Below, one piece after another: positions 20,622 through 30,971 of a DNA stretch of 32,000 bases. The notes under the pieces are model-generated. The model saw only the letters and a program-made list of their open reading frames with translations, was not told where the DNA came from and did not search any database. The DNA comes from an uncultured archaeon (lineage in GTDB: Archaea > Asgardarchaeota > Thorarchaeia > Thorarchaeales > Thorarchaeaceae). The translations under genes were made by a program, and so were the position numbers. The stretch covers positions 30,001-62,000 of the forward strand of contig CAYHAA010000012.1 in NCBI GenBank assembly GCA_964354495.1, given 5' to 3'. How positions within the stretch are numbered: position 1 is the first letter of the stretch; each line of letters begins with the position of its first letter.

Positions 20622-20954
20622 ATGACAAAAGAAAAGATACTGGCGCAGCTGAAATCTCTTGGAGACCGATTTAAGGATCCCAAGATACAACGCAGGTTCG
20701 AGGGCTATAACAAGACTGTCCAATTCATCTTTCCTGATATAGACTTGAAGGTATACATGAAAATCGGGGATGCCAAGCTCGAGCAGATTGCGGAGGGAGA
20801 GATAGACTCGCAACTGAAGGTGACAATGGACACAAGTGTCTTCTTAGGAATAATGAACAAGACCGAGAGCCCAATGTCTGCCTATTCATCTGGCAAGCTG
20901 AAGACTGTGGGTGAGGTTCCAGACCTCCTCAAACTCCAGAAGTTGCTTGTATAG
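20622..20954 (+). CDS. SCP2 sterol/lipid-binding domain protein
   Basis: 110 aa; ends in the SCP2-type signature LKVTMDTSVFLGIM...PMSAYSSGKLKTVGEVPDLLKLQKLL. TATA-like AAATATAA near 20580. Confidence 0.8.
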   Translation: MTKEKILAQLKSLGDRFKDPKIQRRFEGYNKTVQFIFPDIDLKVYMKIGDAKLEQIAEGEIDSQLKVTMDTSVFLGIMNKTESPMSAYSSGKLKTVGEVPDLLKLQKLLV

Positions 20955-20963
20955 CACATTGCG

Positions 20964-21341
20964 CTATAGCTCTGCAACGCTCTTGGCATTCTGAGGATGT
21001 GCTATGGACTCTTCTTCCATCGCTGCAGCAACGAGCTCCCGCATCTTCAGCAACTGTGCTCTTACGCGCTCAGCACCCTCCTGGGTGATTACGACTATTG
21101 TGGTGGGCTTGAGTTCAACAAAGCGCTTCGAGATTCTAATTAGCCCGAGTGATTCAAGCTTCCGCAAATGACTTGACAAGTTCCCAGATGTGAGATTCAA
21201 GGTCTTTTGCAGGTCGGTGAATTTGGCTTTCTGTGTGAAATATAGGTATGAGAGGATAGAGAGTCTTGCTGGGACGAAAGTCTCACGGTCTTCTTCCATG
21301 AGACCAACCAGTGCACCCAGAATACTCCCATCAATGCTCAC
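20964..21341 (-). CDS. Winged-helix transcriptional regulator (ArsR/MarR-like, HTH_34 type)
   Basis: PARLSILSYL...FTDLQKTLNLTSGNLSSHLRKLE..GLI...K.F...PTT...T..G. GTG start overlaps the upstream TAG. Confidence 0.85.
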   Translation of the reverse strand: MSIDGSILGALVGLMEEDRETFVPARLSILSYLYFTQKAKFTDLQKTLNLTSGNLSSHLRKLESLGLIRISKRFVELKPTTIVVITQEGAERVRAQLLKMRELVAAAMEEESIAHPQNAKSVAEL

Positions 21342-22042
21342 TACTTTTCCCGCCCAACACTCTCCAAGAGAAGACGTTCTGCAGTTATGAGCATGTAAAT
21401 ACCAAGGAAGAAGATTCCCCCTATATCTACTAGAATAAGGATATAGAAGGCAATACCTGGAAATACAACAATGGGTATGATGCTCATCAAGACCGCTGCT
21501 GCATAGTAGAGAGATTCGTTGGCGGTCGAGCCGGATACAGGATACCTCTTGGCCTCTCGGTAGTTCTCAACATTTCCAAAGAACAGGAGCGCCTGCATAC
21601 ACGGAGAAAAAAGCTCCGGATGCTCGGTCCCGAATGTAAGCATTGACATCACAATGATCAGTATCACGATGATGGCCCAGGATACTTTCATCTCACGGCT
21701 CATTTCTGTACTCTCTCCCTCAGGCCGGGGATACGCTTTCATCAGCGGGATTACTAGCCTGAAGGAGATTGCCCAGGCAATGAAGAGATTCACTGCGATG
21801 AAAAGCAGATTGACCCATAGATTGGATCCTAGTTCTCCTGTCTGTCCCACTATGCCAATGAATAGGAGCCCAGAGAATGAGATTGCTCCTCCTATTAACA
21901 CGTAGATGATTCCACTCACTCTGCGAGAAACGACTTGTGGGTACTTGTCAACAATAGCTGTAAGCTCCAGTAGTTGTCTGGCCTGGTTGAGGATATCATC
22001 CGAAGTCTTTTCTCCGGCTTTTTCATTCTCTGCACTAGTCAT
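21341..22042 (-). CDS. Multi-pass membrane protein of unknown function
   Basis: About six hydrophobic segments. ATG 22042 with a GAGGTG RBS at 22049-22054; the longer ORF to 22294 runs through the terminator and the ABC gene. Confidence 0.7.
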   Translation of the reverse strand: MTSAENEKAGEKTSDDILNQARQLLELTAIVDKYPQVVSRRVSGIIYVLIGGAISFSGLLFIGIVGQTGELGSNLWVNLLFIAVNLFIAWAISFRLVIPLMKAYPRPEGESTEMSREMKVSWAIIVILIIVMSMLTFGTEHPELFSPCMQALLFFGNVENYREAKRYPVSGSTANESLYYAAAVLMSIIPIVVFPGIAFYILILVDIGGIFFLGIYMLITAERLLLESVGREK

Positions 22043-22140
22043 ACGCAACACCTCGTTGGCTCTGTATGCACTTCCGTCATACACTTTCTGCGTATTAAGT
22101 ATGAGTAGTTCGGTGTTCAAAATAACGCTGAAGAATTTCG

Positions 22141-22181
22141 AAAAAAAGAGGAGTGGCGCTGGCGTGATTCCAGCACCACTC
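22141..22181 (-). terminator. Hairpin plus U-tract terminator after the ABC-2 permease
   Basis: Minus strand GAGTGGTGCTGG-AATCACG-CCAGCGCCACTC (12 bp with one U.G pair), followed by CTC and T7. Confidence 0.7.
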
Positions 22182-22200
22182 GATACGTGATATTGACACT

Positions 22201-23367
22201 TTACCTGAGATGCTTTCCGCGTTTCTCGAAGAGAATGACTCCAAATGCCAAGATTGCGATGCCAGCAATCAATACGACTGCCAGGTCTATCCAAATTGAT
22301 AGTGTAGAAACCGGAGCACCTCTAAGAAAGAGTGTATTCAAGGCTTGGGTGACGTAGTTACTGGGCATGAAGGCTGCGATAGTTTCTGAAACACCTCCGA
22401 GCGGCATGAATGTGCCAAAGAACATCATCGGCATTATGAAGATGAAAGCTACACCCGTAGCGATATCTGCCGATTTTGAGATCGTGGCTGTCACTAGGCC
22501 CAATCCAACGCAACTCAGGGAGAATGCCAAGACAATCGCGAAGGCGAACACGAGTCCAAGCAGATCAGTCGCTGGTCTGTATCCAATCGCGAAGGCCGAT
22601 GCAAACACGACGACTACTTGCCCTGTGACAACTATCAGGTTGGATAGTATCTGACTGATCATATACTCACCTGATGTAACGGGGGTCGTGGCCAGACGCT
22701 CCAACACACCACCATCTCTGTCCATAGTCATTGACTGCGCCACGGAAGTGATGGTGAATATCACTGCGAAGGCGAAGATGCCCGGCGCCATATAGTCCCA
22801 GGTTGTGAGTGTGCTTGTTTCAATCATTGAGGGATTGCCTATCTCGATAGGAAGATCCAAGGACATGGCTGTTTCTCCGAACAGTGTGGTGAGCAATACC
22901 TGCTGAACCATTGGAGGTATGGCACTACCTGCAATCATGGATGCACTATCTACGTATAGACTCACAGTGACATTACTCCATTGAGTTGAGTCCAGAGGTG
23001 CATTCCAATAGGACACACAACTATCACCAAAACCTTCAGGAACTATGATGAGTGCGTCAAGATTGCCATTCAGTAGGTCAACTTGAGCTGTTTCGTTACT
23101 ATCATAGTAGTGGACAGTCATACCATTGAGGCCTGTAAGGTTGCTCGCAAAGTTTGTTCCCCATGTAGGATTATCAGATGATGCATCCATATTCACAAGG
23201 GCCACATCAAAACTGACTGTTCCTGATGTGCCAATGCCGCCAAATGCCATTCCAAAGACAAGAGTGATCATCAAGGGAAACAGCAACAGGAGGAACAGGA
23301 TTGCTGGCTCTCTGACAGACTTCTTGAGGTCCTTCTTCACAAGTACCAAGATTGTCCGCATATTCAT
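22201..23367 (-). CDS. ABC-2 type exporter permease
   Basis: N-terminal TM, large extracytoplasmic loop, YMAPGIFAF, ERLATTP, FFGTFMPL...FMPSNYVTQAL; five C-terminal TM helices. Confidence 0.9.
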   Translation of the reverse strand: MNMRTILVLVKKDLKKSVREPAILFLLLLFPLMITLVFGMAFGGIGTSGTVSFDVALVNMDASSDNPTWGTNFASNLTGLNGMTVHYYDSNETAQVDLLNGNLDALIIVPEGFGDSCVSYWNAPLDSTQWSNVTVSLYVDSASMIAGSAIPPMVQQVLLTTLFGETAMSLDLPIEIGNPSMIETSTLTTWDYMAPGIFAFAVIFTITSVAQSMTMDRDGGVLERLATTPVTSGEYMISQILSNLIVVTGQVVVVFASAFAIGYRPATDLLGLVFAFAIVLAFSLSCVGLGLVTATISKSADIATGVAFIFIMPMMFFGTFMPLGGVSETIAAFMPSNYVTQALNTLFLRGAPVSTLSIWIDLAVVLIAGIAILAFGVILFEKRGKHLR

Positions 23368-23368
23368 T

Positions 23369-24115
23369 CTAGACCGCCTCCCTCAGATTCTTTCCTGTAA
23401 GCTTGATGAAGACCTCTTCCAAGTCTGCCGCTCCGTACTCCTCCATCAGCTCTTTGGGAGTCCCGAGTGCGATGAGTCTGCCCTTGTCAATGATACCCAC
23501 TCTATCGCAGAGTTCCTCTGCTTCCTCCATATAGTGAGTTGTGAGAATCAGCGCCATTCCATTACTCTTGAGTTCCCTGATGAAGTCCCAGACAACTCGA
23601 CGAGAAACAGGGTCCATCGCAACAGTTGGCTCATCCAACAGGGCAACCTTTGGACTGTGGATGAGTGCCATGAGAGTGCTGACTCGGCGAATCATGCCGC
23701 CGCTGTACTCCTTGGCACGTCTGTCAGCGTCGTCCTCCAGTCCGATTCTCTTGATGAGGTCATCCACTCGTGTCTTGAGGTCCTCTCTTCTAACAGAGTG
23801 AAACTCCCCATAGATCTCGATATTCTCTCTTCCTGTGAGGAAGGGATAGAATGCCGGTTCCTGTGGGCAGACACCTATGAGTCTTCGAACGCTTACGTTT
23901 TCCTTCACGACATCAAAACCTCCTACTTCCGCTGACCCCCCATCAGGCTCAAGCAGAGTGCTGAGGACTCTGATTATCGTTGTCTTTCCAGCTCCGTTCG
24001 GTCCAAGTAGACCAAAGAGCTCTCCCCAGCCTATCTCAAGGCTGAGATCATCGACCGCGGTTATTTCACCAAACCGCTTGGTCAGATTATTGATAACAAT
24101 CGCAGATTCAGACAT
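23369..24115 (-). CDS. ABC exporter ATP-binding subunit (DrrA/NodI-like)
   Basis: Walker A GPNGAGKT, signature YSGGM, Walker B LLDEPT, switch TTHYMEEAE. Confidence 0.95.
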   Translation of the reverse strand: MSESAIVINNLTKRFGEITAVDDLSLEIGWGELFGLLGPNGAGKTTIIRVLSTLLEPDGGSAEVGGFDVVKENVSVRRLIGVCPQEPAFYPFLTGRENIEIYGEFHSVRREDLKTRVDDLIKRIGLEDDADRRAKEYSGGMIRRVSTLMALIHSPKVALLDEPTVAMDPVSRRVVWDFIRELKSNGMALILTTHYMEEAEELCDRVGIIDKGRLIALGTPKELMEEYGAADLEEVFIKLTGKNLREAV

Positions 24116-24273
24116 TGTATTTCACCTGTGTATGGCTGCACAGAATGCTTATAATACGTCGACAATCTTTGAACGACATTGTAGTCTGCGCGGCAAACTG
24201 CCAACAAGTTTCCCAATCAACGTTTAAAGGGCAGAATCGTATATCTCTTGAATTGCATCAGAGGTGGTATGAT
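24116..24273. promoter_or_regulatory. Divergent promoter region
   Basis: Minus strand TATTATAAG (24148-24156) with RBS AGGTGAA; plus strand TTTAAA (24223-24228) with RBS GAGGTGG (24261-24267). Confidence 0.5.
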
Positions 24274-25272
24274 ATGAGAGTCCTCATAACTGCTCCTTTT
24301 TCTGAATCCGGCCTGAAACGACTACGTGATGAGGGACTGGAAGTCGATTATCGTAGTTGGCTTGAAACAGGCAAGCTCCATATGGGTGACTCGCTCCTCA
24401 AAACACTCAGAGAAGGAAAGTATGACATCGTAGTCGTCGAGGGAGATGAAATCAAGGAACCAGTACTTGAGCAGACCACGCTCAAGCTTGTCGGATCTGT
24501 CCGAGGATCCCCCAATAACATCTCAATCAGCACAGCAACAGCGAAGGGAATTCCGGTCATTGCTGTACCAGGTAGAAATACTACAGCAGTCGCCGAGCTA
24601 GCCATTGCATTGATGCTCAGTCAAGCTAGGAAAATCAACGCAGCAGAGCGTCTGCTCAAGAATGACTTCTTCGTCAATGACTTCAAAGACTTCGCGGGAA
24701 TGTACACTAGGCTCACTGGCTTTGAGTTGAATGGCAGAACTGTTGGAATCATCGGTCTAGGGAATATCGGCTTCGAAGTTGCGAAACGGCTTGTTTCCTT
24801 TGGTGTAAAACTCTTGGTCTTTGACCCCTATGTGGCCAAAGAGCGCATGTATGCAGTAGGCGCAAAGTCTGTGAGTCTTGACACCCTTCTTAGCCAATCC
24901 GATATTGTGACTGTCCACTGTGCACCAACAGAGGAAACGCAAGGAATGTTGGGCGAAAGGGAATTTGGTCTGATGAAGAAGACTGCTATCTTCATCAATA
25001 CTGCAAGAGCATCGGTCACAGACGAAGATGCACTTCTCAAAGCATTGAAGGCTGGAACTATTGCAGGTGCCGGATTAGATGTGTTCTCCATGGAGCCGGT
25101 TGACTGTGATAATGCGTTTCTGGAATTGGATAATGTCACTGTCATGCCTCATATGGGAAGCAACACGGTGGAAACAATAGAACGACAGTCAAAGATTATC
25201 GCCGAGGACATCATTGCGTTTGCTCGGGGAAAGCGACCAAAGAATATTCAGAATCGGGAGGTGTACGAATAG
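24274..25272 (+). CDS. D-isomer-specific 2-hydroxyacid dehydrogenase family protein (YoaD-like)
   Basis: GRN..AVAE, GIIGLGNIG Rossmann motif, NTARA, GLDVFSMEP, MPHMG. No ACT domain, so not a full SerA. N-terminus VLITAPF.E.G...Y.SW.E.G resembles B. subtilis YoaD as recalled. Confidence 0.85.
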   Translation: MRVLITAPFSESGLKRLRDEGLEVDYRSWLETGKLHMGDSLLKTLREGKYDIVVVEGDEIKEPVLEQTTLKLVGSVRGSPNNISISTATAKGIPVIAVPGRNTTAVAELAIALMLSQARKINAAERLLKNDFFVNDFKDFAGMYTRLTGFELNGRTVGIIGLGNIGFEVAKRLVSFGVKLLVFDPYVAKERMYAVGAKSVSLDTLLSQSDIVTVHCAPTEETQGMLGEREFGLMKKTAIFINTARASVTDEDALLKALKAGTIAGAGLDVFSMEPVDCDNAFLELDNVTVMPHMGSNTVETIERQSKIIAEDIIAFARGKRPKNIQNREVYE

Positions 25273-26771
25273 TGGTCGTGGCAGCAATAGATGCCGGCAC
25301 AACTGGTGTGCGTTGCATGATCTCTGGTGCGAAAGGAGAACCACTAGGAATGAGTAGGCGGTCTTGGGACTACACTACTCCCGTCGATTTGGAGATAGCG
25401 AAGGAGTTTGATCCAGCGCATTTCTGGCACTTGATATGCACAGTTGTTCGAGAGGCAATCAAGACCTCTGGAGTGAAGGCTTCTGATATCTTAGCTGTGT
25501 CCACCACAAGCCAACGACATGGTGCGGTCTTTGTCGATAGGGCGGGAGTAGAAGTCTATGCAGGGCCGAATGTTGATGCGCGCGGAGCCATGACCCAGTA
25601 CATAATCGAAGAGTCGCTCGGCGAGAAGTACCATGAGATCACTGGCTGCTGGCCGCCGCTCATGTTCTCACCTGCACGACTGTCTTGGTTTGAAGAAGAG
25701 GCGCCAGACATCTTTGAATCAATAGCTCATATATTACCTATCAATGACTGGATAACCTATAGGCTTGGCGACACCTTCACCACCGACCCGTCTGCAGGTA
25801 GTGCTACAGGTTTCATGGACGTTCGAACCTGCAAGTGGAGCGATGAAGTCACCGAGGCCGTGGGCATCAACAGTGAGATTCTGCCAGAGATACACGAACC
25901 TGGAACCATCATAGGTGAGGTGACTGCAGAGGCGCACAAGGCATGTGGACTGCCCAAAGGACTTCAGATTGCTCAGGGTGGTGCAGATGCTCATTGCGCA
26001 CTTCTGGCAAGTACTGCTCAGCCCGGGGAGATTGTTGTCATTGCTGGTAGCACTGCACCTGTGATGATGATTCTGGACCAGTTCTTTTGTGATCCAGCTC
26101 ATAAGATTTGGACTGGCTGCCACATGATATATGGCAACTGGGTACTTGAGAGTAATGCAACCTTGACAGGTGCTTACCTGAACTGGGTGATCCGGCTTCT
26201 CTGCGAGCGTGCCAAGAACACAGAGAGATGCATTACGGATACTTTGAACCATCTCGATAAGATTCTCGCAGGCATTCCCCCGGGAAGCAATGAAACCTTC
26301 TTTGCATTGGGACCTAGCATAATGAACTGTCAACAGATTACTGATGTCAAGCAAGCCAAGATGGTCTTTCCACAACCAGCTCTACCTCAGGTAATTCCCC
26401 TGAACTCTGCTGGAATGATACATGCGGTTCTGGAGAACATTGCCTATGCAGTGAGAGGCAATTGTCTGCAGCTAGAAGCGCATCAGCAGGCGAGTTGCAT
26501 CAAGACAATCGGAGGCATGACACAGTCCAGAATCTGGCCTGAGATGCTAGCGAATATCCTTGGACGCCCTGTGCGAGCTCCAGTTCAACCAGAGGGCAGT
26601 CTTCTAGGGGCAGCAATATGCGCATCGACGGGGGCTGGTCAATATCGCAGACTGATGGATGCTGCCGAGGCAATGGTAAGATGGAAGTCCCCTGCCAATC
26701 CTGACGAACGAGCAGATTTATACAAGTCCTACTACTCCAAGTGGTCCAATATGTTCTGCGATGGTGCGTGA
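25272..26771 (+). CDS. FGGY-family carbohydrate kinase (YoaC/LsrK-like)
   Basis: IDAGTTGVR, TSQRHG, NVDARG, DWITYRL...DPS, GGAD, AGST, LENIAY, IGGMTQS...LANILG, GAAI. GTG start overlaps the upstream TAG. Confidence 0.88.
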   Translation: MVVAAIDAGTTGVRCMISGAKGEPLGMSRRSWDYTTPVDLEIAKEFDPAHFWHLICTVVREAIKTSGVKASDILAVSTTSQRHGAVFVDRAGVEVYAGPNVDARGAMTQYIIEESLGEKYHEITGCWPPLMFSPARLSWFEEEAPDIFESIAHILPINDWITYRLGDTFTTDPSAGSATGFMDVRTCKWSDEVTEAVGINSEILPEIHEPGTIIGEVTAEAHKACGLPKGLQIAQGGADAHCALLASTAQPGEIVVIAGSTAPVMMILDQFFCDPAHKIWTGCHMIYGNWVLESNATLTGAYLNWVIRLLCERAKNTERCITDTLNHLDKILAGIPPGSNETFFALGPSIMNCQQITDVKQAKMVFPQPALPQVIPLNSAGMIHAVLENIAYAVRGNCLQLEAHQQASCIKTIGGMTQSRIWPEMLANILGRPVRAPVQPEGSLLGAAICASTGAGQYRRLMDAAEAMVRWKSPANPDERADLYKSYYSKWSNMFCDGA

Positions 26772-26773
26772 GC

Positions 26774-27409
26774 ATGTACGAAGATGCAAAGAAAGAGATC
26801 TTAGACATCTGCCTGCAGATGGTGAAGAACAATCTAGTGATTGGGTCCTCCGGCAATGTCAGTGTCCGACTGGGCAACCATGTGGTCATAACAGCCAGTT
26901 CTATTCCCTATACTGAGATGAACAGCGACGATATGGTCGTTCTAGACATGACAGGCAAGGTTGTTGAAGGCAGCAAGAATCCCAGCACTGAAACCAAGAT
27001 GCACCTTGAGCTCTACAACACTCGAGAGGATGCCAAAGCAGTGGTCCATACACATAGTCTCTATGCGTCTGCCATGGCAGTCTTGAACGAACCGCTCCCT
27101 CCAATAATTGATGAAACTGTACCGAAACTTGGCTCTGAGATACGAGTAAGCAAGTATGCTGTGCCTGGGACCAAGGAACTTGCGAAGAACGTTAGCGCTG
27201 CAATAGAAGATCGAAGTGCTGCACTCATTGGCAATCATGGTGTTGTCTGTATTGGAAAGACATTGAAAGAAGCATTGCACCTCGCTATCGTTCTTGAACG
27301 TACCTGTAGAATATACCTGATTGCGAAACAGAGCGGAACTCCGCATCATCTTCCTGAAGAGGTAGTTGAAGATGAGCAAGATGTGTGGGAGATGATGAGA
27401 GGTTTCTGA
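26774..27409 (+). CDS. Class II aldolase/adducin family protein (fuculose-1-phosphate aldolase-like)
   Basis: GSSGNVSVR, PSTETKMHLELY, Zn ligands HTHS and NHG. Confidence 0.9.
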   Translation: MYEDAKKEILDICLQMVKNNLVIGSSGNVSVRLGNHVVITASSIPYTEMNSDDMVVLDMTGKVVEGSKNPSTETKMHLELYNTREDAKAVVHTHSLYASAMAVLNEPLPPIIDETVPKLGSEIRVSKYAVPGTKELAKNVSAAIEDRSAALIGNHGVVCIGKTLKEALHLAIVLERTCRIYLIAKQSGTPHHLPEEVVEDEQDVWEMMRGF

Positions 27410-29191
27410 ATGCCCGGCTATCACGGAAAGATCCTGGCGGCAGACCTCTCGAAGAAAGAAACAAATGTAATTACAATTGAAGAGCAGGTTGCTGCATCGT
27501 TCCTAGGAGGGAGTGGCTATGCCAGTCGTCTATTGTATGATTTACTGGACTCTAGCTGTGATCCTCTTGGCCCGAACAATATGCTGTTCTTCATGACCGG
27601 ACCCTTGACTGGCACCCTTGCCCCCTGCACTGGACGCCACGTGGTATGCGGGAAGTCCCCCATCACGGGACTCTGGGGTGAATCAAACGCTGGCGGTCAC
27701 TTTGGGTTTCGGCTGAAAGCCTCGGGATTTGATGGAATTCTGATCACCGGTGCCTCGGAGACTCCTCTCGTTCTCGATGTGAATAGTGGGCATGCCACCT
27801 TTCAGCCTGCTGATTACCTATGGGGGATGACCACTGGGGAAACTCAGAAGGCTCTGAAAAGCAATCAGAGAAGGATGCAAGTTGCTTGTATTGGCCCTGC
27901 AGGCGAGAATCTTGTCAAATTTGCGAGCATCGTAAACGATGAGAGAGTGGCTGCGCGGTGTGGTCTGGGAGCAGTCATGGGCTCAAAGAAATTGAAAGCT
28001 ATTACTGTTTCTGGGTCCCGCGGCACTCCTCTTGCCTTCCCTGATGAGTTTAGAGAGTTGGCGCGCTCATCCTCCAAGATTCTGGGTGAAGCAATGGGGA
28101 TGCTGCGTGACCAGGGTACTGCAATGTACATCGACGTCGGGATGATGTTCAACGACGTGCCTATCAAGTATTTCCAGGATATTGCGTTTGATGACGCTGA
28201 TCGCATTAATGCAAAAGCCCTCAGTGAAATACTCACAGGAAGAAGCGCTTGCCACTCCTGTCCGATCGCCTGTGGAAGGAGAATATCCATACCCGAGCTC
28301 AATCTTGAAGACGTTGCAGGACCCGAATATCAGACCCTTGCTGCATTTGGGACCAACCTCATGATATCAGACCTGAAGAAAATCGCACTGATGAACAATC
28401 TGTGCAACGAATATGGAATGGACACAATCAGTTGCGGTAGTACCATTGCTTTTGCCACTTATCTCTGTGATACAGGAAAGGCTGGCTACAACCTAAGATG
28501 GGCTGATCCAGACAAGGTGATTGACCTTATCCACATGATAGCTATGCGGGAGGAGATTGGTAACATCCTTGCAGAAGGATCGGTCGCGCTTGGAAAGACT
28601 CATGGAGCTGAAGAGTCTGTCCTTCATGTGAAAGGACTCGAGATCCCAAATCACGATCCCCGGGCATTCTCCGGTATGGCTACAGTCTACGCAACGGCGT
28701 CCCGCGGAGCCACCCATCTAGAGGGAGATATGTACAGCGTTGATATGGGCGCTGATGTACGAGAACTTGGGATAGCGGCTGGTGATCGACTGGAGAATGA
28801 GGCCAAAGGAATGACTGCAGCTCGAGCTCAAGATTTCAGGGCGTTCTGTGATTCCGTCATTATGTGTCACTTTGCTATTGTTCCTCTGAAGAGAATCATC
28901 GACCTTCTGAATCTGGCGATTGGTTCCTCATATCAGCTAGAAGACGTACTCAGAATCGGGAGCCGTGCGGTCACAATGAAGCGGCTCTTTAACCTGCGAT
29001 GTGGTCTTACGCCGCAGGATGATCGATTGCCGCCGCCTCTTTTGATACCTCAAGCTGAGAACGTGACTGATGGTTTTGTTCCAGATCTGGACCTACAGCT
29101 GCAGGACTATTACGACTATAGAAACTGGGACCGAGGCACGGGCAGGCCCCGAAGTGAAGCTCTACGCAAGTTGGGAATCAATGTGAGTTAG
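27410..29191 (+). CDS. aor: Tungsten aldehyde:ferredoxin oxidoreductase family protein
   Basis: GGSGYA, DPLGP.N, KSPITG...ESNAGG, IGPAGEN, R.GLGAVMGSKKLKA, CHSCPIAC, EYGMDTISCG, HVKGLEIPNHDPR, GATH, DDRLP. Confidence 0.92.
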   Translation: MPGYHGKILAADLSKKETNVITIEEQVAASFLGGSGYASRLLYDLLDSSCDPLGPNNMLFFMTGPLTGTLAPCTGRHVVCGKSPITGLWGESNAGGHFGFRLKASGFDGILITGASETPLVLDVNSGHATFQPADYLWGMTTGETQKALKSNQRRMQVACIGPAGENLVKFASIVNDERVAARCGLGAVMGSKKLKAITVSGSRGTPLAFPDEFRELARSSSKILGEAMGMLRDQGTAMYIDVGMMFNDVPIKYFQDIAFDDADRINAKALSEILTGRSACHSCPIACGRRISIPELNLEDVAGPEYQTLAAFGTNLMISDLKKIALMNNLCNEYGMDTISCGSTIAFATYLCDTGKAGYNLRWADPDKVIDLIHMIAMREEIGNILAEGSVALGKTHGAEESVLHVKGLEIPNHDPRAFSGMATVYATASRGATHLEGDMYSVDMGADVRELGIAAGDRLENEAKGMTAARAQDFRAFCDSVIMCHFAIVPLKRIIDLLNLAIGSSYQLEDVLRIGSRAVTMKRLFNLRCGLTPQDDRLPPPLLIPQAENVTDGFVPDLDLQLQDYYDYRNWDRGTGRPRSEALRKLGINVS

Positions 29192-29204: not shown

Positions 29205-29543
29205 TTAGTTCTTCAGTAGATGCTGCAATTTCATCAAGTCTCTTGCTGGTCCATCTGCCTTGATTTTGCCACTCATGAAGGCACGCATTGCTGAAAGGCT
29301 ACCGTTAAAGATGTCAGTGATGGTCTTACTGTCAGTCTTGATGGTCATGTCTGGGCTCTCAATCGCACCTCTCTCTACGGTGCCTTTTCCCTCAACAAAA
29401 ACGACCGAGATATCCATTCCCATATCTTCGAATTTCATGAGCAAGCTCCTGTTGAAGTTCACGAAGCGTTTTCGCATCTTCGGGTCTCCAGCCTTATCAA
29501 TCATATTTCGAATTGCTGTCAGAAGCTCTTCCTGTGTCACCAT
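29205..29543 (-). CDS. SCP2 sterol/lipid-binding domain protein (second paralogue)
   Basis: PDMTIKTDSKT...IFNGSLSAMRAFMSGKIKADG...LMKLQHLL. Confidence 0.82.
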   Translation of the reverse strand: MVTQEELLTAIRNMIDKAGDPKMRKRFVNFNRSLLMKFEDMGMDISVVFVEGKGTVERGAIESPDMTIKTDSKTITDIFNGSLSAMRAFMSGKIKADGPARDLMKLQHLLKN

Positions 29544-29656: not shown

Positions 29657-30598
29657 GTGTTCAACTTTCAGACAGTACTTGACATTGCTGTGCAGTTTGG
29701 CCTCTTCTATGGCCTCATTCTAGTTGGATACCTATTAGCCAGACTATCAGGTAGAGGAAAAGTGGTCAATCGGCATCTCACATCTCTGCTCGTCAACTTA
29801 CTGATTCCCATTCTCTTCATCCAAACACTGCTCACCGCTTCTCCAGACTCCACTCTCGAGATACCTCTCATTGTGAGTCTATGTCTCCTTGTCAATCTTC
29901 TCGGCCCTGTGTTGATGTACATCAGGTTGTGGAGAAGCAATATCGACGATTCAACAAAGGGCGTCTATTACCTCTGTGTGACCTTCAACAATGCTCTTTT
30001 CATACCGCTCCCTCTGGTCATGATGTTCATAGGGATTACAGGGCTCCCAATTGTCATCATCTTCTCTCTTACGCAGATCATATTACTCGCCACACTTGGA
30101 TCGTTCATGGGAGCTGTGTACGGGGGCAAGACATCAGCGCCGCTGAAAATCGTGAAGGATGCGCTCATGTTTCCGCCCTTTCTGGCAGCGATCATCGCAC
30201 TGATCTTGTTCTCGATGCGAGTTCAATTGACAGGAGACCTTTCATTCGTACTCTCGTTTGCGGGTCCAATAACAACGTATCTTGCGTTGGTTTCAGTGGG
30301 TGTTGGCGTAGGAGTGCGATTCTCACTTGTTGACATAAGGGCTGCCCTAGAAGTCGTAGGAATAAGGCAGATACTGGTACCCCTCATCACGATACCAGTT
30401 ATCCTTCTCTCGGGGCTATCACATCTGCCCACGGTTATCATCATTCTTGAGGCTCTGATGCCACCAGCAGTCCTTACTGTCATCTACGCTACGAGCTTTG
30501 GGCTTGACGCCGAAAAGGCCGCGACTATTGTGACTGTTGGCACCCTATTCCTCCTGCCAATTATCCCAGCCATACCTTTTCTCCTGGGATACCCCTAG
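29657..30598 (+). CDS. AEC family (auxin efflux carrier/malate permease) transporter
   Basis: About ten TM segments, F.NALFIPLP and MPPAV motifs, ATIVTVGTL C-terminus. Confidence 0.85.
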   Translation: MFNFQTVLDIAVQFGLFYGLILVGYLLARLSGRGKVVNRHLTSLLVNLLIPILFIQTLLTASPDSTLEIPLIVSLCLLVNLLGPVLMYIRLWRSNIDDSTKGVYYLCVTFNNALFIPLPLVMMFIGITGLPIVIIFSLTQIILLATLGSFMGAVYGGKTSAPLKIVKDALMFPPFLAAIIALILFSMRVQLTGDLSFVLSFAGPITTYLALVSVGVGVGVRFSLVDIRAALEVVGIRQILVPLITIPVILLSGLSHLPTVIIILEALMPPAVLTVIYATSFGLDAEKAATIVTVGTLFLLPIIPAIPFLLGYP

Positions 30599-30647: not shown

Positions 30648-30971
30648 GTGTCAGTCTTGAGCAAACGCGAGTCAAAAAAGGAGCCTGCCAAAATCAAAGA
30701 GTCCCTTGATGACTTGGTCCAGAAGTTGGAGCAAGACAGTTCTTCCAGCACGAGTTGGAATGATTCAGTCGCATCCAACAGAGAGGACTGGGAGCATATC
30801 AAGAGCCAGATTCATGAACGTCAGAGGGCGTTGAAGCAGCTCGTGACCAATAAGAAAGCAGGACTGGTGGGGGTCGATGAATTCGAGGAGAAGTATCGGA
30901 AGCTACAGGATGAGCTTGCTGAACTTGAGACAGCCATCTATAACTTGCGCCTTGGTACTGATGTTAAGTAG
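30648..30971 (+). CDS. Small soluble coiled-coil protein of unknown function
   Basis: 107 aa, charged heptad-like helices, TATA-like CATATAT upstream; fills the gap between two genes. Confidence 0.6.
   Translation: MSVLSKRESKKEPAKIKESLDDLVQKLEQDSSSSTSWNDSVASNREDWEHIKSQIHERQRALKQLVTNKKAGLVGVDEFEEKYRKLQDELAELETAIYNLRLGTDVK

Follow-up and report, generated by a model that had tools for sequence, protein, structure and literature searches.

A conserved set of SCP2, dehydrogenase, FGGY kinase, class II aldolase and aldehyde oxidoreductase genes in Asgard archaea suggests an uncharacterised catabolic module

What might a dehydrogenase, a sugar-type kinase, an aldolase and an aldehyde:ferredoxin oxidoreductase (AOR) do together when their genes follow one another in the genome of an Asgard archaeon? 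The question is raised by a stretch of 32,000 nucleotides (nt) of the Thorarchaeaceae contig CAYHAA010000012.1 (GCA_964354495.1, positions 30,001-62,000 of the forward strand), hereafter the window, in which these four genes lie on the same (+) strand between positions 24274 and 29191. The host genome is that of an Asgard archaeon, measures 3.3 Mb and is 97.7% complete. The genes, with protein lengths in amino acids (aa), and the spacer before them are as follows.

24116..24273, + strand: upstream spacer of 158 nt, with TTTAAA at 24223-24228 and a GAGGTGG ribosome-binding motif at 24261-24267
24274..25272, + strand: dehydrogenase, taken to be NAD-type, of the D-2-hydroxyacid dehydrogenase (2-HADH) family, 332 aa; a divergent subfamily with a remodelled substrate loop
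25272..26771, + strand: FGGY-family kinase, 499 aa; LsrK-like, in a separate clade
26774..27409, + strand: FucA-like class II (metal-dependent) aldolase, 211 aa; Aldolase_II
27410..29191, + strand: tungsten-type AOR, 593 aa, of a module-dedicated AOR subfamily

The four genes are translationally coupled. At the dehydrogenase/kinase junction, TAGTG, the GTG start of the kinase shares G25272 with the TAG stop of the dehydrogenase; 2 nt separate the kinase TGA from the aldolase start, and 0 nt lie between the aldolase TGA and the AOR ATG. An earlier note on this DNA, made from the sequence alone, had read these junctions in the same way. A GGAGGTG-like Shine-Dalgarno motif can be read before each of the four starts, which fit the lengths of homologues in related genomes (332/499/211/593 aa), and the TTTAAA located ~46 nt before the dehydrogenase ATG could be an archaeal TATA box. 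Pfam placed the proteins in the four families that the note had named, with matches to 2-Hacid_dh(+_C), FGGY_N+C, Aldolase_II and AFOR_N+C at E-values of 1e-17 to 1e-107. All four remain under every curated NCBIfam cut-off, so that, as the note had anticipated, the best matches are not ordinary XylB, FucK or SerA proteins.

A search for the kinase at E <= 1e-60 over 400 Asgard genomes recovered it from 178 (~45%) and, within the host's own family, from 50 of 85 genomes. This patchy presence within the host family fits an optional catabolic trait better than housekeeping salvage. The closest kinase homologues, at 54-99% identity, come from Candidatus Thorarchaeota metagenome-assembled genomes (MAGs), joined by one from Sifarchaeia and one from Promethearchaeota. 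We then scored the open reading frames (ORFs) of 40 loci from 12 Asgard families, that of the host and 11 others, with the window proteins. The dehydrogenase accompanies the kinase in 39 loci, the aldolase in 36, a protein of the SCP2 fold in 28, and the AOR in 20. The order of the genes is the same in all 12 sampled loci of the host family, in keeping with the claim of a conserved four-gene order, and it is rearranged in the 11 other families; for instance, it runs AOR-SCP2-aldolase-kinase-dehydrogenase in family f11. Such recurrence goes far beyond chance, and because gene order varies among families, the association is not mere inherited synteny. The set of SCP2, dehydrogenase, kinase and aldolase also occurs at non-Asgard MAG loci (L082 and L083). 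Thus, the four genes proposed as a unit held together, while the SCP2 component and the wider module had been missed. No description of this gene set was found in the literature searched.

In most lineages, the SCP2 gene stands immediately upstream of the dehydrogenase gene. The window contains two such genes.

20622..20954, + strand: SCP2b, SCP2-fold protein of 110 aa (Pfam SCP2 35.2 bits), the orthologue of the SCP2 protein encoded upstream of the dehydrogenase elsewhere
29205..29543, - strand: SCP2a, SCP2-fold protein of 112 aa (Pfam SCP2 46.3 bits), convergent on the AOR gene; a family-specific second copy

Both pass the gathering score of Pfam SCP2 (PF02036), which is 21.3. The ORF of SCP2b opens at TTG 20514, and the ATG at 20622 fits the homologues. 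SCP2b is 54-99% identical to the SCP2 proteins encoded upstream of the dehydrogenase in genomes of the same family and 32-41% identical to those of families f14, f6 and f11; in the window, a divergent MarR/ABC-2 unit separates it from the dehydrogenase. SCP2a occupies the same place in L001, P0075's contig, L042, L044, L047, L049 and L050. The fold of these proteins points to an apolar ligand, and the SCP2 protein probably binds an apolar part of the substrate or of the aldehyde. A three-chain complex prediction from alignments of the dehydrogenase, aldolase and SCP2b, with SCP2 as the partner, gave no answer in either direction (score 0.16, mark 0.32).

Gene fusions tie the parts together physically. 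In f22, the most heavily sampled family (135 genomes scored), the dehydrogenase and aldolase matches fall on a single ORF of ~560 aa in 5 of 5 loci, and Pfam confirmed the 2-HADH and Aldolase_II fusion on L075. Applied to long homologues of the kinase, Pfam also revealed three single chains of 1300-1480 aa with the order FGGY - 2-HADH - SCP2 - Aldolase_II.

L075:4901-6583, - strand: dehydrogenase-aldolase fusion of f22, adjoining an SCP2-like gene and the kinase; equivalents in L072, L074, L076 and L077
Proteins P0196, P0184, P0214, P0315 and P0268, loci L109 and L110: four-domain single-chain fusions, P0315 being from Chloroflexota and P0268 from Dehalococcoidia

Other fusions join kinase, dehydrogenase and SCP2, kinase and dehydrogenase, or kinase and aldolase. 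The named sources are Chloroflexota and Dehalococcoidia MAGs for the four-domain chains and an Actinomycetota MAG for the kinase-dehydrogenase-SCP2 chain. The fusion of all four parts, SCP2 included, into single chains shows that they act jointly. The fused Chloroflexota gene of L109 lies directly behind a gene for a SorC/LsrR-type sugar-binding regulator, with a sugar-type transporter of the major facilitator superfamily (MFS) nearby. A related cluster is carried by a Streptomyces atratus plasmid (NZ_CP109382.1; L111, 188536-203498) and comprises an FGGY kinase, a dehydrogenase and a convergent class II aldolase, together with a sugar-binding regulator and an MFS transporter; SCP2 and AOR are absent from it. 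Its dehydrogenase is 39% identical to that of the window and has the same loop signature.

The kinase passes the Pfam gathering scores of both FGGY_N (PF00370, 143.9 bits) and FGGY_C (PF02782, 64.1 bits). Among the NCBIfam models it scores best against LsrK (NF008187, 281.4 bits for a cut-off of 528), followed by XylB (200 for 380), GlpK (136), GntK (130), FucK (98) and RhaB (43). It also matches the LsrK structure (PDB 5ya0) with 216 bits and is 28% identical to E. coli LsrK. The motifs TSQRHG, PNVDARG and KIWTGCH...GNWVLESN, the last of which the note had given as KIW.GCH...G.W.LESN, are all present, and the first two align to CSMREG and ANVDARA of LsrK. A quick IQ-TREE tree groups the cluster kinases in a single clade with a Shimodaira-Hasegawa-like approximate likelihood ratio test (SH-aLRT) support of 98. 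The LsrK proteins of E. coli and Bacillus form a clade of their own (support 100), and GlpK, XylB and LyxK likewise fall outside the cluster-kinase clade. By these comparisons LsrK is the closest characterised kinase, as the note had recognised, yet the window kinase lies outside the LsrK clade. The same tree places a separate GlpK-like kinase in the host genome.

Both domains of the dehydrogenase family are present in the 332-aa protein (PF02826 and PF00389, 194.5 and 64 bits), and Pfam found no ACT domain in it. The best NCBIfam scores are 255.7 bits against phosphoglycerate dehydrogenase (SerA, TIGR01327; cut-off 454) and 242 against GyaR (cut-off 455). Among known structures, a short Pyrococcus protein named 'phosphoglycerate dehydrogenase' (PDB 1wwk, 214 bits) comes nearest, along with glyoxylate reductases, and a look-up in the ESM Atlas returned generic 2-HADH clusters only. 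The catalytic Arg-Glu-His triad, equivalent to Arg240, Glu269 and His292 of SerA, is retained. In an alignment of 35 dehydrogenase orthologues, His293 is invariant and Arg245 nearly so; the fused f22 dehydrogenases, which stand outside this alignment, have Lys in place of the triad Arg. Asp184-Pro185 are kept behind the Rossmann strand, a feature that we take to denote an NAD-type enzyme.

The substrate side of the dehydrogenase is remodelled. The Arg60-Ser61-Arg62 loop of SerA is replaced by Val-Glu-Gly-Asp, and the canonical G-x-G/T-x-D loop by Arg-x-x-Pro-x-Asn. Among the 35 orthologues, Trp29, Glu56, Arg77 and Arg101 are invariant, and Asp58 and Pro80 nearly so. The usual carboxylate-binding loop is thus lost from the enzyme, and the invariant Arg77 and Arg101 are gained. 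A role as the SerA of serine synthesis was rejected, since the phosphate-binding residues are missing.

The aldolase (Pfam Aldolase_II, 185.8 bits) is the sole gene of the class II aldolase family in the host genome. Its closest structure is FucA (PDB 4c25, 141 bits), with the 5-deoxyribulose-1-phosphate aldolase DrdA further off (PDB 6btd, 118 bits). The top NCBIfam match is a subfamily named L-ribulose-5-phosphate 4-epimerase (174 bits for a cut-off of 251); two FucA models give 172 for 264 (NF005302) and 135.8 for 400 (TIGR01086), and OtnC gives 119 bits. The catalytic Glu73 and the metal (Zn) ligands His92, His94 and His155 of FucA are kept in the window aldolase and are invariant in 28 orthologues. 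Where FucA has Tyr113-Met114, the window protein has Asp113-Glu114 and almost every cluster orthologue Asp/Glu-Glu; Ala/Gly-Glu occurs in the f11 set, the most distant one. In RhaD, a bona fide aldolase, the position aligned to FucA 114 is also Glu.

The AOR comprises AFOR_N and AFOR_C, scores 361 bits against the Pyrococcus furiosus AOR (1aor), and keeps the C-x2-C-x3-C motif, Cys494 and the equivalents of Glu313 and His448; 'tungsten-type' is here a family label, as the choice of tungsten or molybdenum is not readable from sequence. The host genome encodes eleven AOR paralogues. The AORs of the clusters in f1, f14, f11 and L083, together with one host paralogue, separate from nine other host paralogues with an SH-like support of 0.991. 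Since the cluster AORs form a subfamily of their own, they are a dedicated and old component of the module. At locus L082, from a MAG labelled Euryarchaeota, a convergent NAD aldehyde dehydrogenase gene comes after the SCP2-dehydrogenase-kinase-aldolase set, where the AOR would otherwise stand, and at locus L083, on a metagenomic contig, a Zn alcohol dehydrogenase follows the AOR. This non-homologous replacement of the AOR in one locus, and its association with a second aldehyde sink in the other, lead us to expect that the aldolase releases an aldehyde. The papers on Asgard metabolism that the search turned up speak of AORs in general terms only.

The closest paralogue of the window AOR in the host genome, at 42% identity, belongs to a separate cluster on host contig C4 (~129400-134783; L100:3401-8784). 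This cluster encodes a PHP-domain protein, SCP2, a nitronate monooxygenase (NMO)-like flavoenzyme, an Fe-alcohol dehydrogenase and the AOR, and looks like a module leading from alcohol to aldehyde to acid, also with an SCP2 partner.

What reaction sequence could these parts carry out? We read the SCP2 carrier, dehydrogenase, kinase, aldolase and dedicated AOR as a conserved and uncharacterised catabolic module acting in the order kinase, dehydrogenase, aldolase, AOR, and we assign this reading a probability of roughly 0.5. The parts, with their catalytic residues intact, are linked both genetically and, through fusion, physically; the order of the reactions is what we infer. The kinase would act on a compound that ends in a vicinal polyol (R-CHOH-CHOH-CHOH-CH2OH, or a related sugar or deoxy-sugar alcohol) and phosphorylate its terminal primary hydroxyl. 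The dehydrogenase would then oxidise the adjoining secondary alcohol to provide the CH2OP-CO-CHOH head required by class II aldolases, and the aldolase would cut between C3 and C4 to give dihydroxyacetone phosphate (DHAP) and an aldehyde R-CHO. The AOR would turn this aldehyde into an acid while reducing ferredoxin, and the acid may leave the cell through the AEC or the ABC-2 transporter encoded nearby, with the SCP2 protein as an obligatory partner. Such a pathway would draw on known enzyme families in broadly the way that fucose or rhamnose catabolism does, and it upholds, as a reading, the note's proposal of an undescribed kinase/aldolase route to DHAP and an aldehyde for the AOR.

Several observations favour phosphorylation before oxidation. 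The kinase scores best against kinases that act on a primary hydroxyl next to a CHOH group (LsrK, XylB, GlpK and GntK) and worst against the ketose 1-kinases FucK and RhaB, so that the dehydrogenase would be needed to create the keto group beside the phosphate. The cluster encodes no sugar isomerase, and neither FucI (PF02952) nor RhaA (PF06134) has a match in the 97.7%-complete host genome. In the dehydrogenase, two invariant Arg residues have appeared and the carboxylate-binding loop is gone; it is also this enzyme that the fusions join to the aldolase or to the kinase. The oxidise-then-phosphorylate order that had been suggested fits the family similarity of the kinase less well. The logic of the proposed order resembles that of the Brucella erythritol route, in which the FGGY kinase EryA phosphorylates the polyol and the polyol-phosphate dehydrogenase EryB then produces a keto-sugar phosphate. 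Unlike the proposed pathway, however, EryB is an FAD enzyme, its product goes on to isomerisation and not to aldolase cleavage, and neither AOR nor SCP2 takes part.

Other observations weigh against this reading. We know of no enzyme of the 2-hydroxyacid dehydrogenase family that oxidises a polyol phosphate, the known members using 2-hydroxy acids, and the phosphate-binding Arg60, Arg62 and Lys141 of SerA are Val, Gly and Val in the window dehydrogenase. The order of domains in the fusions is no proof of the order of reactions. The AOR is not adjacent in 20 of the 40 sampled loci. Finally, the SorC/LsrR-type regulator and the MFS transporter beside the bacterial fused gene sit more easily with a small soluble sugar than with a greasy substrate, and in that case SCP2 would have no obvious role.

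Every enzyme would keep the usual role of its family if the cluster followed the classical order of fucose and rhamnose catabolism. In that case the kinase would convert a free ketose to its 1-phosphate, the aldolase would split this into DHAP and a 2-hydroxyaldehyde (glycolaldehyde, D-lactaldehyde or glyceraldehyde), the AOR would yield the 2-hydroxy acid, and the dehydrogenase would finish with the 2-oxo acid (glyoxylate, pyruvate or hydroxypyruvate). The proximity of the aldolase to FucA speaks for this order, E. coli FucA splits D-ribulose 1-phosphate to glycolaldehyde, and the host has a similar combination in a cluster on contig C1 with a PfkB kinase, a 2-keto-3-deoxy-6-phosphogluconate (KDPG) aldolase, SCP2 and a GlcD/GlcF-type D-2-hydroxyacid oxidase. 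Yet the kinase is least like the very ketose 1-kinases that the scheme calls for, no isomerase would supply the ketose in a genome that lacks FucI and RhaA, and the AOR, placed here between aldolase and dehydrogenase, is missing from half of the loci. Moreover, the pairing of dehydrogenase and kinase, with SCP2, is the most constant one, the dehydrogenase is fused to the aldolase or the kinase, and its carboxylate-binding loop is remodelled, so that we consider the classical order rather unlikely. The comparison with the fucose, rhamnose and D-arabinose pathways (FucK-FucA-FucO/AldA, RhaB-RhaD) leads to a similar balance. The module shares with them an FGGY kinase and a class II metal-dependent aldolase that would deliver DHAP and an aldehyde to a dedicated oxidoreductase, and its aldolase keeps the catalytic Glu73 and His92/94/155 of FucA. 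In contrast to them, it has neither isomerase nor mutarotase, its kinase is farthest from FucK and RhaB, it adds a 2-HADH-family enzyme and SCP2 as obligatory parts, Asp or Glu stands for Tyr113 of FucA, the aldehyde would go to a ferredoxin-linked AOR, and all curated cut-offs are missed. An ordinary fucose, rhamnose or xylulose operon was rejected on account of the scores under cut-off and the lack of isomerases. It is also conceivable that the class II enzyme is no aldolase and acts as an epimerase, isomerase or decarboxylase (compare AraD, LerI and OtnC), leading from a sugar acid or a tetrose or pentose derivative to a pentose-phosphate or triose intermediate, with the AOR as an unrelated or secondary neighbour. 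The epimerase name of its top NCBIfam match, the OtnC score, the acidic residue in place of FucA Tyr113 and the half of loci without an adjacent AOR would agree with this. We nevertheless find it improbable, given that FucA Glu73 and the three His ligands are invariant, that the aldolase RhaD also has Glu in the FucA-114 column, that the AORs form a module-specific subfamily, and that the replacement of the AOR by an aldehyde dehydrogenase in L082 and its pairing with an alcohol dehydrogenase in L083 point to a released aldehyde.

The earlier note had favoured a pair of the YoaD/YoaC type that would oxidise and then phosphorylate a pentose derived from S-adenosylmethionine (SAM) or from autoinducer 2 (AI-2), such as a derivative of 4,5-dihydroxy-2,3-pentanedione (DPD), methylthioribose or 5-deoxyribose, with aldolase and AOR completing a route like the DHAP shunt. 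The position of LsrK as closest characterised kinase, the resemblance of the aldolase to DrdA and the LsrR/SorC-type regulator in front of the bacterial fused homologue agree with it, as does the order dehydrogenase-kinase, which presumably matches yoaD-yoaC. Against it, the kinase lies outside the LsrK clade and far under the LsrK cut-off, LuxS is absent from the 97.7%-complete host genome, and Pfam and NCBIfam scans of the window found no LsrR, LsrACDB, LsrF or LsrG, so that AI-2 or DPD as the substrate gained no support. The Lsr system itself shares with the module the 28% identity of LsrK, the QR..G and NVDAR motifs, DHAP among the end products and the LsrR/SorC-type regulator of the bacterial homologue, whereas it cleaves by a thiolase and not a class II aldolase and has its kinase in a separate clade. 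An AI-2 consumption system was rejected for the missed LsrK cut-off, the separate clade and the lack of both Lsr context and LuxS. Methylthioribose and 5-deoxyribose fared no better, since those shunts use MtnK/MtnA-type enzymes that are not in the cluster. The DHAP shunt and 5-deoxyribose salvage (MtnK or MtnP, MtnA, Ald2; DrdK, DrdI, DrdA) likewise use a class II aldolase to form DHAP and a small aldehyde, with DrdA as a relative of the window aldolase. The module differs from them in having an FGGY kinase in place of MtnK, no MtnA-type isomerase in the cluster (the only IF-2B-family gene of the host genome is on another contig), a dehydrogenase and SCP2, and a patchy distribution; the disposal of a SAM by-product should be universal, and the module is found in ~45% of the Asgard genomes. 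The argument from an S-box (SAM riboswitch) also falls away: an Rfam search at gathering thresholds over the whole window gave 0 RNA family matches, hence no riboswitch, and S-box and sigma-70 or bacterial-promoter reasoning is inapplicable because the host is an Asgard archaeon. We therefore hold a SAM- or AI-2-derived pentose to be still more improbable than a non-aldolase class II enzyme. The B. subtilis yoaD-yoaC-yoaB genes, an orphan S-box operon with a dehydrogenase, then an FGGY kinase, and a transporter, differ from the module in being bacterial, riboswitch-controlled and without aldolase, AOR or SCP2. For YoaDC, the literature searched offers one suggestion, put forward by Barbe et al. 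as a guess: a part in the breakdown of cysteine, in which YoaC would be a glycerate kinase (PMC2885750). A biosynthetic direction, in which glycerol would give DHAP for condensation with an aldehyde formed from an acid by the AOR, was also set aside, as a dedicated kinase and dehydrogenase are not needed for DHAP and a separate GlpK-like kinase is present.

A replicon of Bacillus sp. N5-665 (NZ_CP093325.1, L104) has one true LsrK, which scores 231 bits and is encoded within an lsr operon that looks complete; no dehydrogenase adjoins any of its three other, more distant FGGY kinases. PLSDB lists this 5.5-Mb replicon as 'plasmid p1' with hardly any gene table; going by its length, it may be a chromosome.

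For the kinase-first module, the SCP2 fold and the chemical fit bring to mind one specific substrate in sediment Asgard archaea, an amphipathic lipid with a 1,2,3,4-tetrol at its end, as bacteriohopanetetrol has in its side chain; we regard it as a very long shot. C35 would be phosphorylated and C34 oxidised, and C33-C35 would be cut off as DHAP to leave a C32 hopanoid aldehyde, which the AOR would make into C32 hopanoic acid or, in the L083 lineage, the alcohol dehydrogenase into C32 hopanol. To our knowledge, no enzyme has been described for this conversion. The sugar-binding regulator and sugar-type MFS transporter next to the fused gene in bacteria point instead to a substrate that is small and soluble. 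The proposed acid matches a geochemical product without a known biological source (PMC4339782, PMC11884234), and the C32 beta-beta acid is the commonest hopanoic acid in carbonates of anoxic origin (PMC11884234).

The proposed five-part pathway extends across much of the Asgard archaea and recurs as single fused chains in Chloroflexota and other bacterial MAGs, with no described function found for it. If the reading is correct, metabolic models of these archaea, the nearest that eukaryotes have to archaeal relatives, would gain a source of carbon and low-potential electrons. A divergent branch of 2-hydroxyacid dehydrogenases, a new FGGY kinase clade and an AOR subfamily would each receive a first function, and a prokaryotic SCP2 protein a defined metabolic context. 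Should the B. subtilis YoaDC proteins belong to the same families, there would be a lead on an S-box operon that has long been an orphan. The fused bacterial enzymes and the S. atratus plasmid cluster, a possible genetic handle in a cultured bacterium, make the function testable at the bench.

A further SCP2 protein of the host is encoded on contig C1 (~576116-580903; L102:1117-5904), in the cluster already mentioned, where the genes for a PfkB kinase, a KDPG/4-hydroxy-2-oxoglutarate (KHG) aldolase, SCP2, a GlcD-like FAD oxidase and a GlcF-like CCG/Fe-S protein lie on one strand. One SCP-2 homologue in MK-D1 is mentioned, without further study, in a preprint about lipid-transfer proteins of Asgard archaea (PMC12139934).

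The cluster is flanked in the window by the following genes, including those of the ATP-binding cassette (ABC) unit.

20964..21341, - strand: MarR/HTH_34-type winged-helix regulator (Pfam HTH_34 75 bits); same gene in L001 and L002
21341-22294, - strand: protein without Pfam match, start uncertain, upstream of the ABC-2 permease; conserved
22201-23367, - strand: ABC-2 permease (Pfam ABC2_membrane_3)
23369-24115, - strand: ABC ATPase (Pfam ABC_tran)
29657..30598, + strand: AEC-family (Mem_trans) permease (Pfam Mem_trans 64.9 bits)
30648-30971, + strand: ORF of ~107 aa without Pfam match, behind the AEC permease; conserved in L001 and L002
30983-31999 and beyond, - strand: ZnuA-type metal-binding protein; a NikR-like regulator and an ABC-3 metal transporter come next in related genomes

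The MarR/HTH_34 regulator is a conserved neighbour within the host family, and its membership of the module is uncertain. The divergent ABC unit (21341..24115, - strand) is a conserved neighbour in the host family only, adjoins the cluster in L041-43, L045-46 and L051-52, and may be an exporter. The AEC permease, possibly an organic-acid carrier, is kept near the cluster in L001, L002 and 8 of the 12 same-family loci (including L041-44, L046 and L051). The ZnuA-type unit is syntenic with the cluster across the host family and is probably unrelated to the module.

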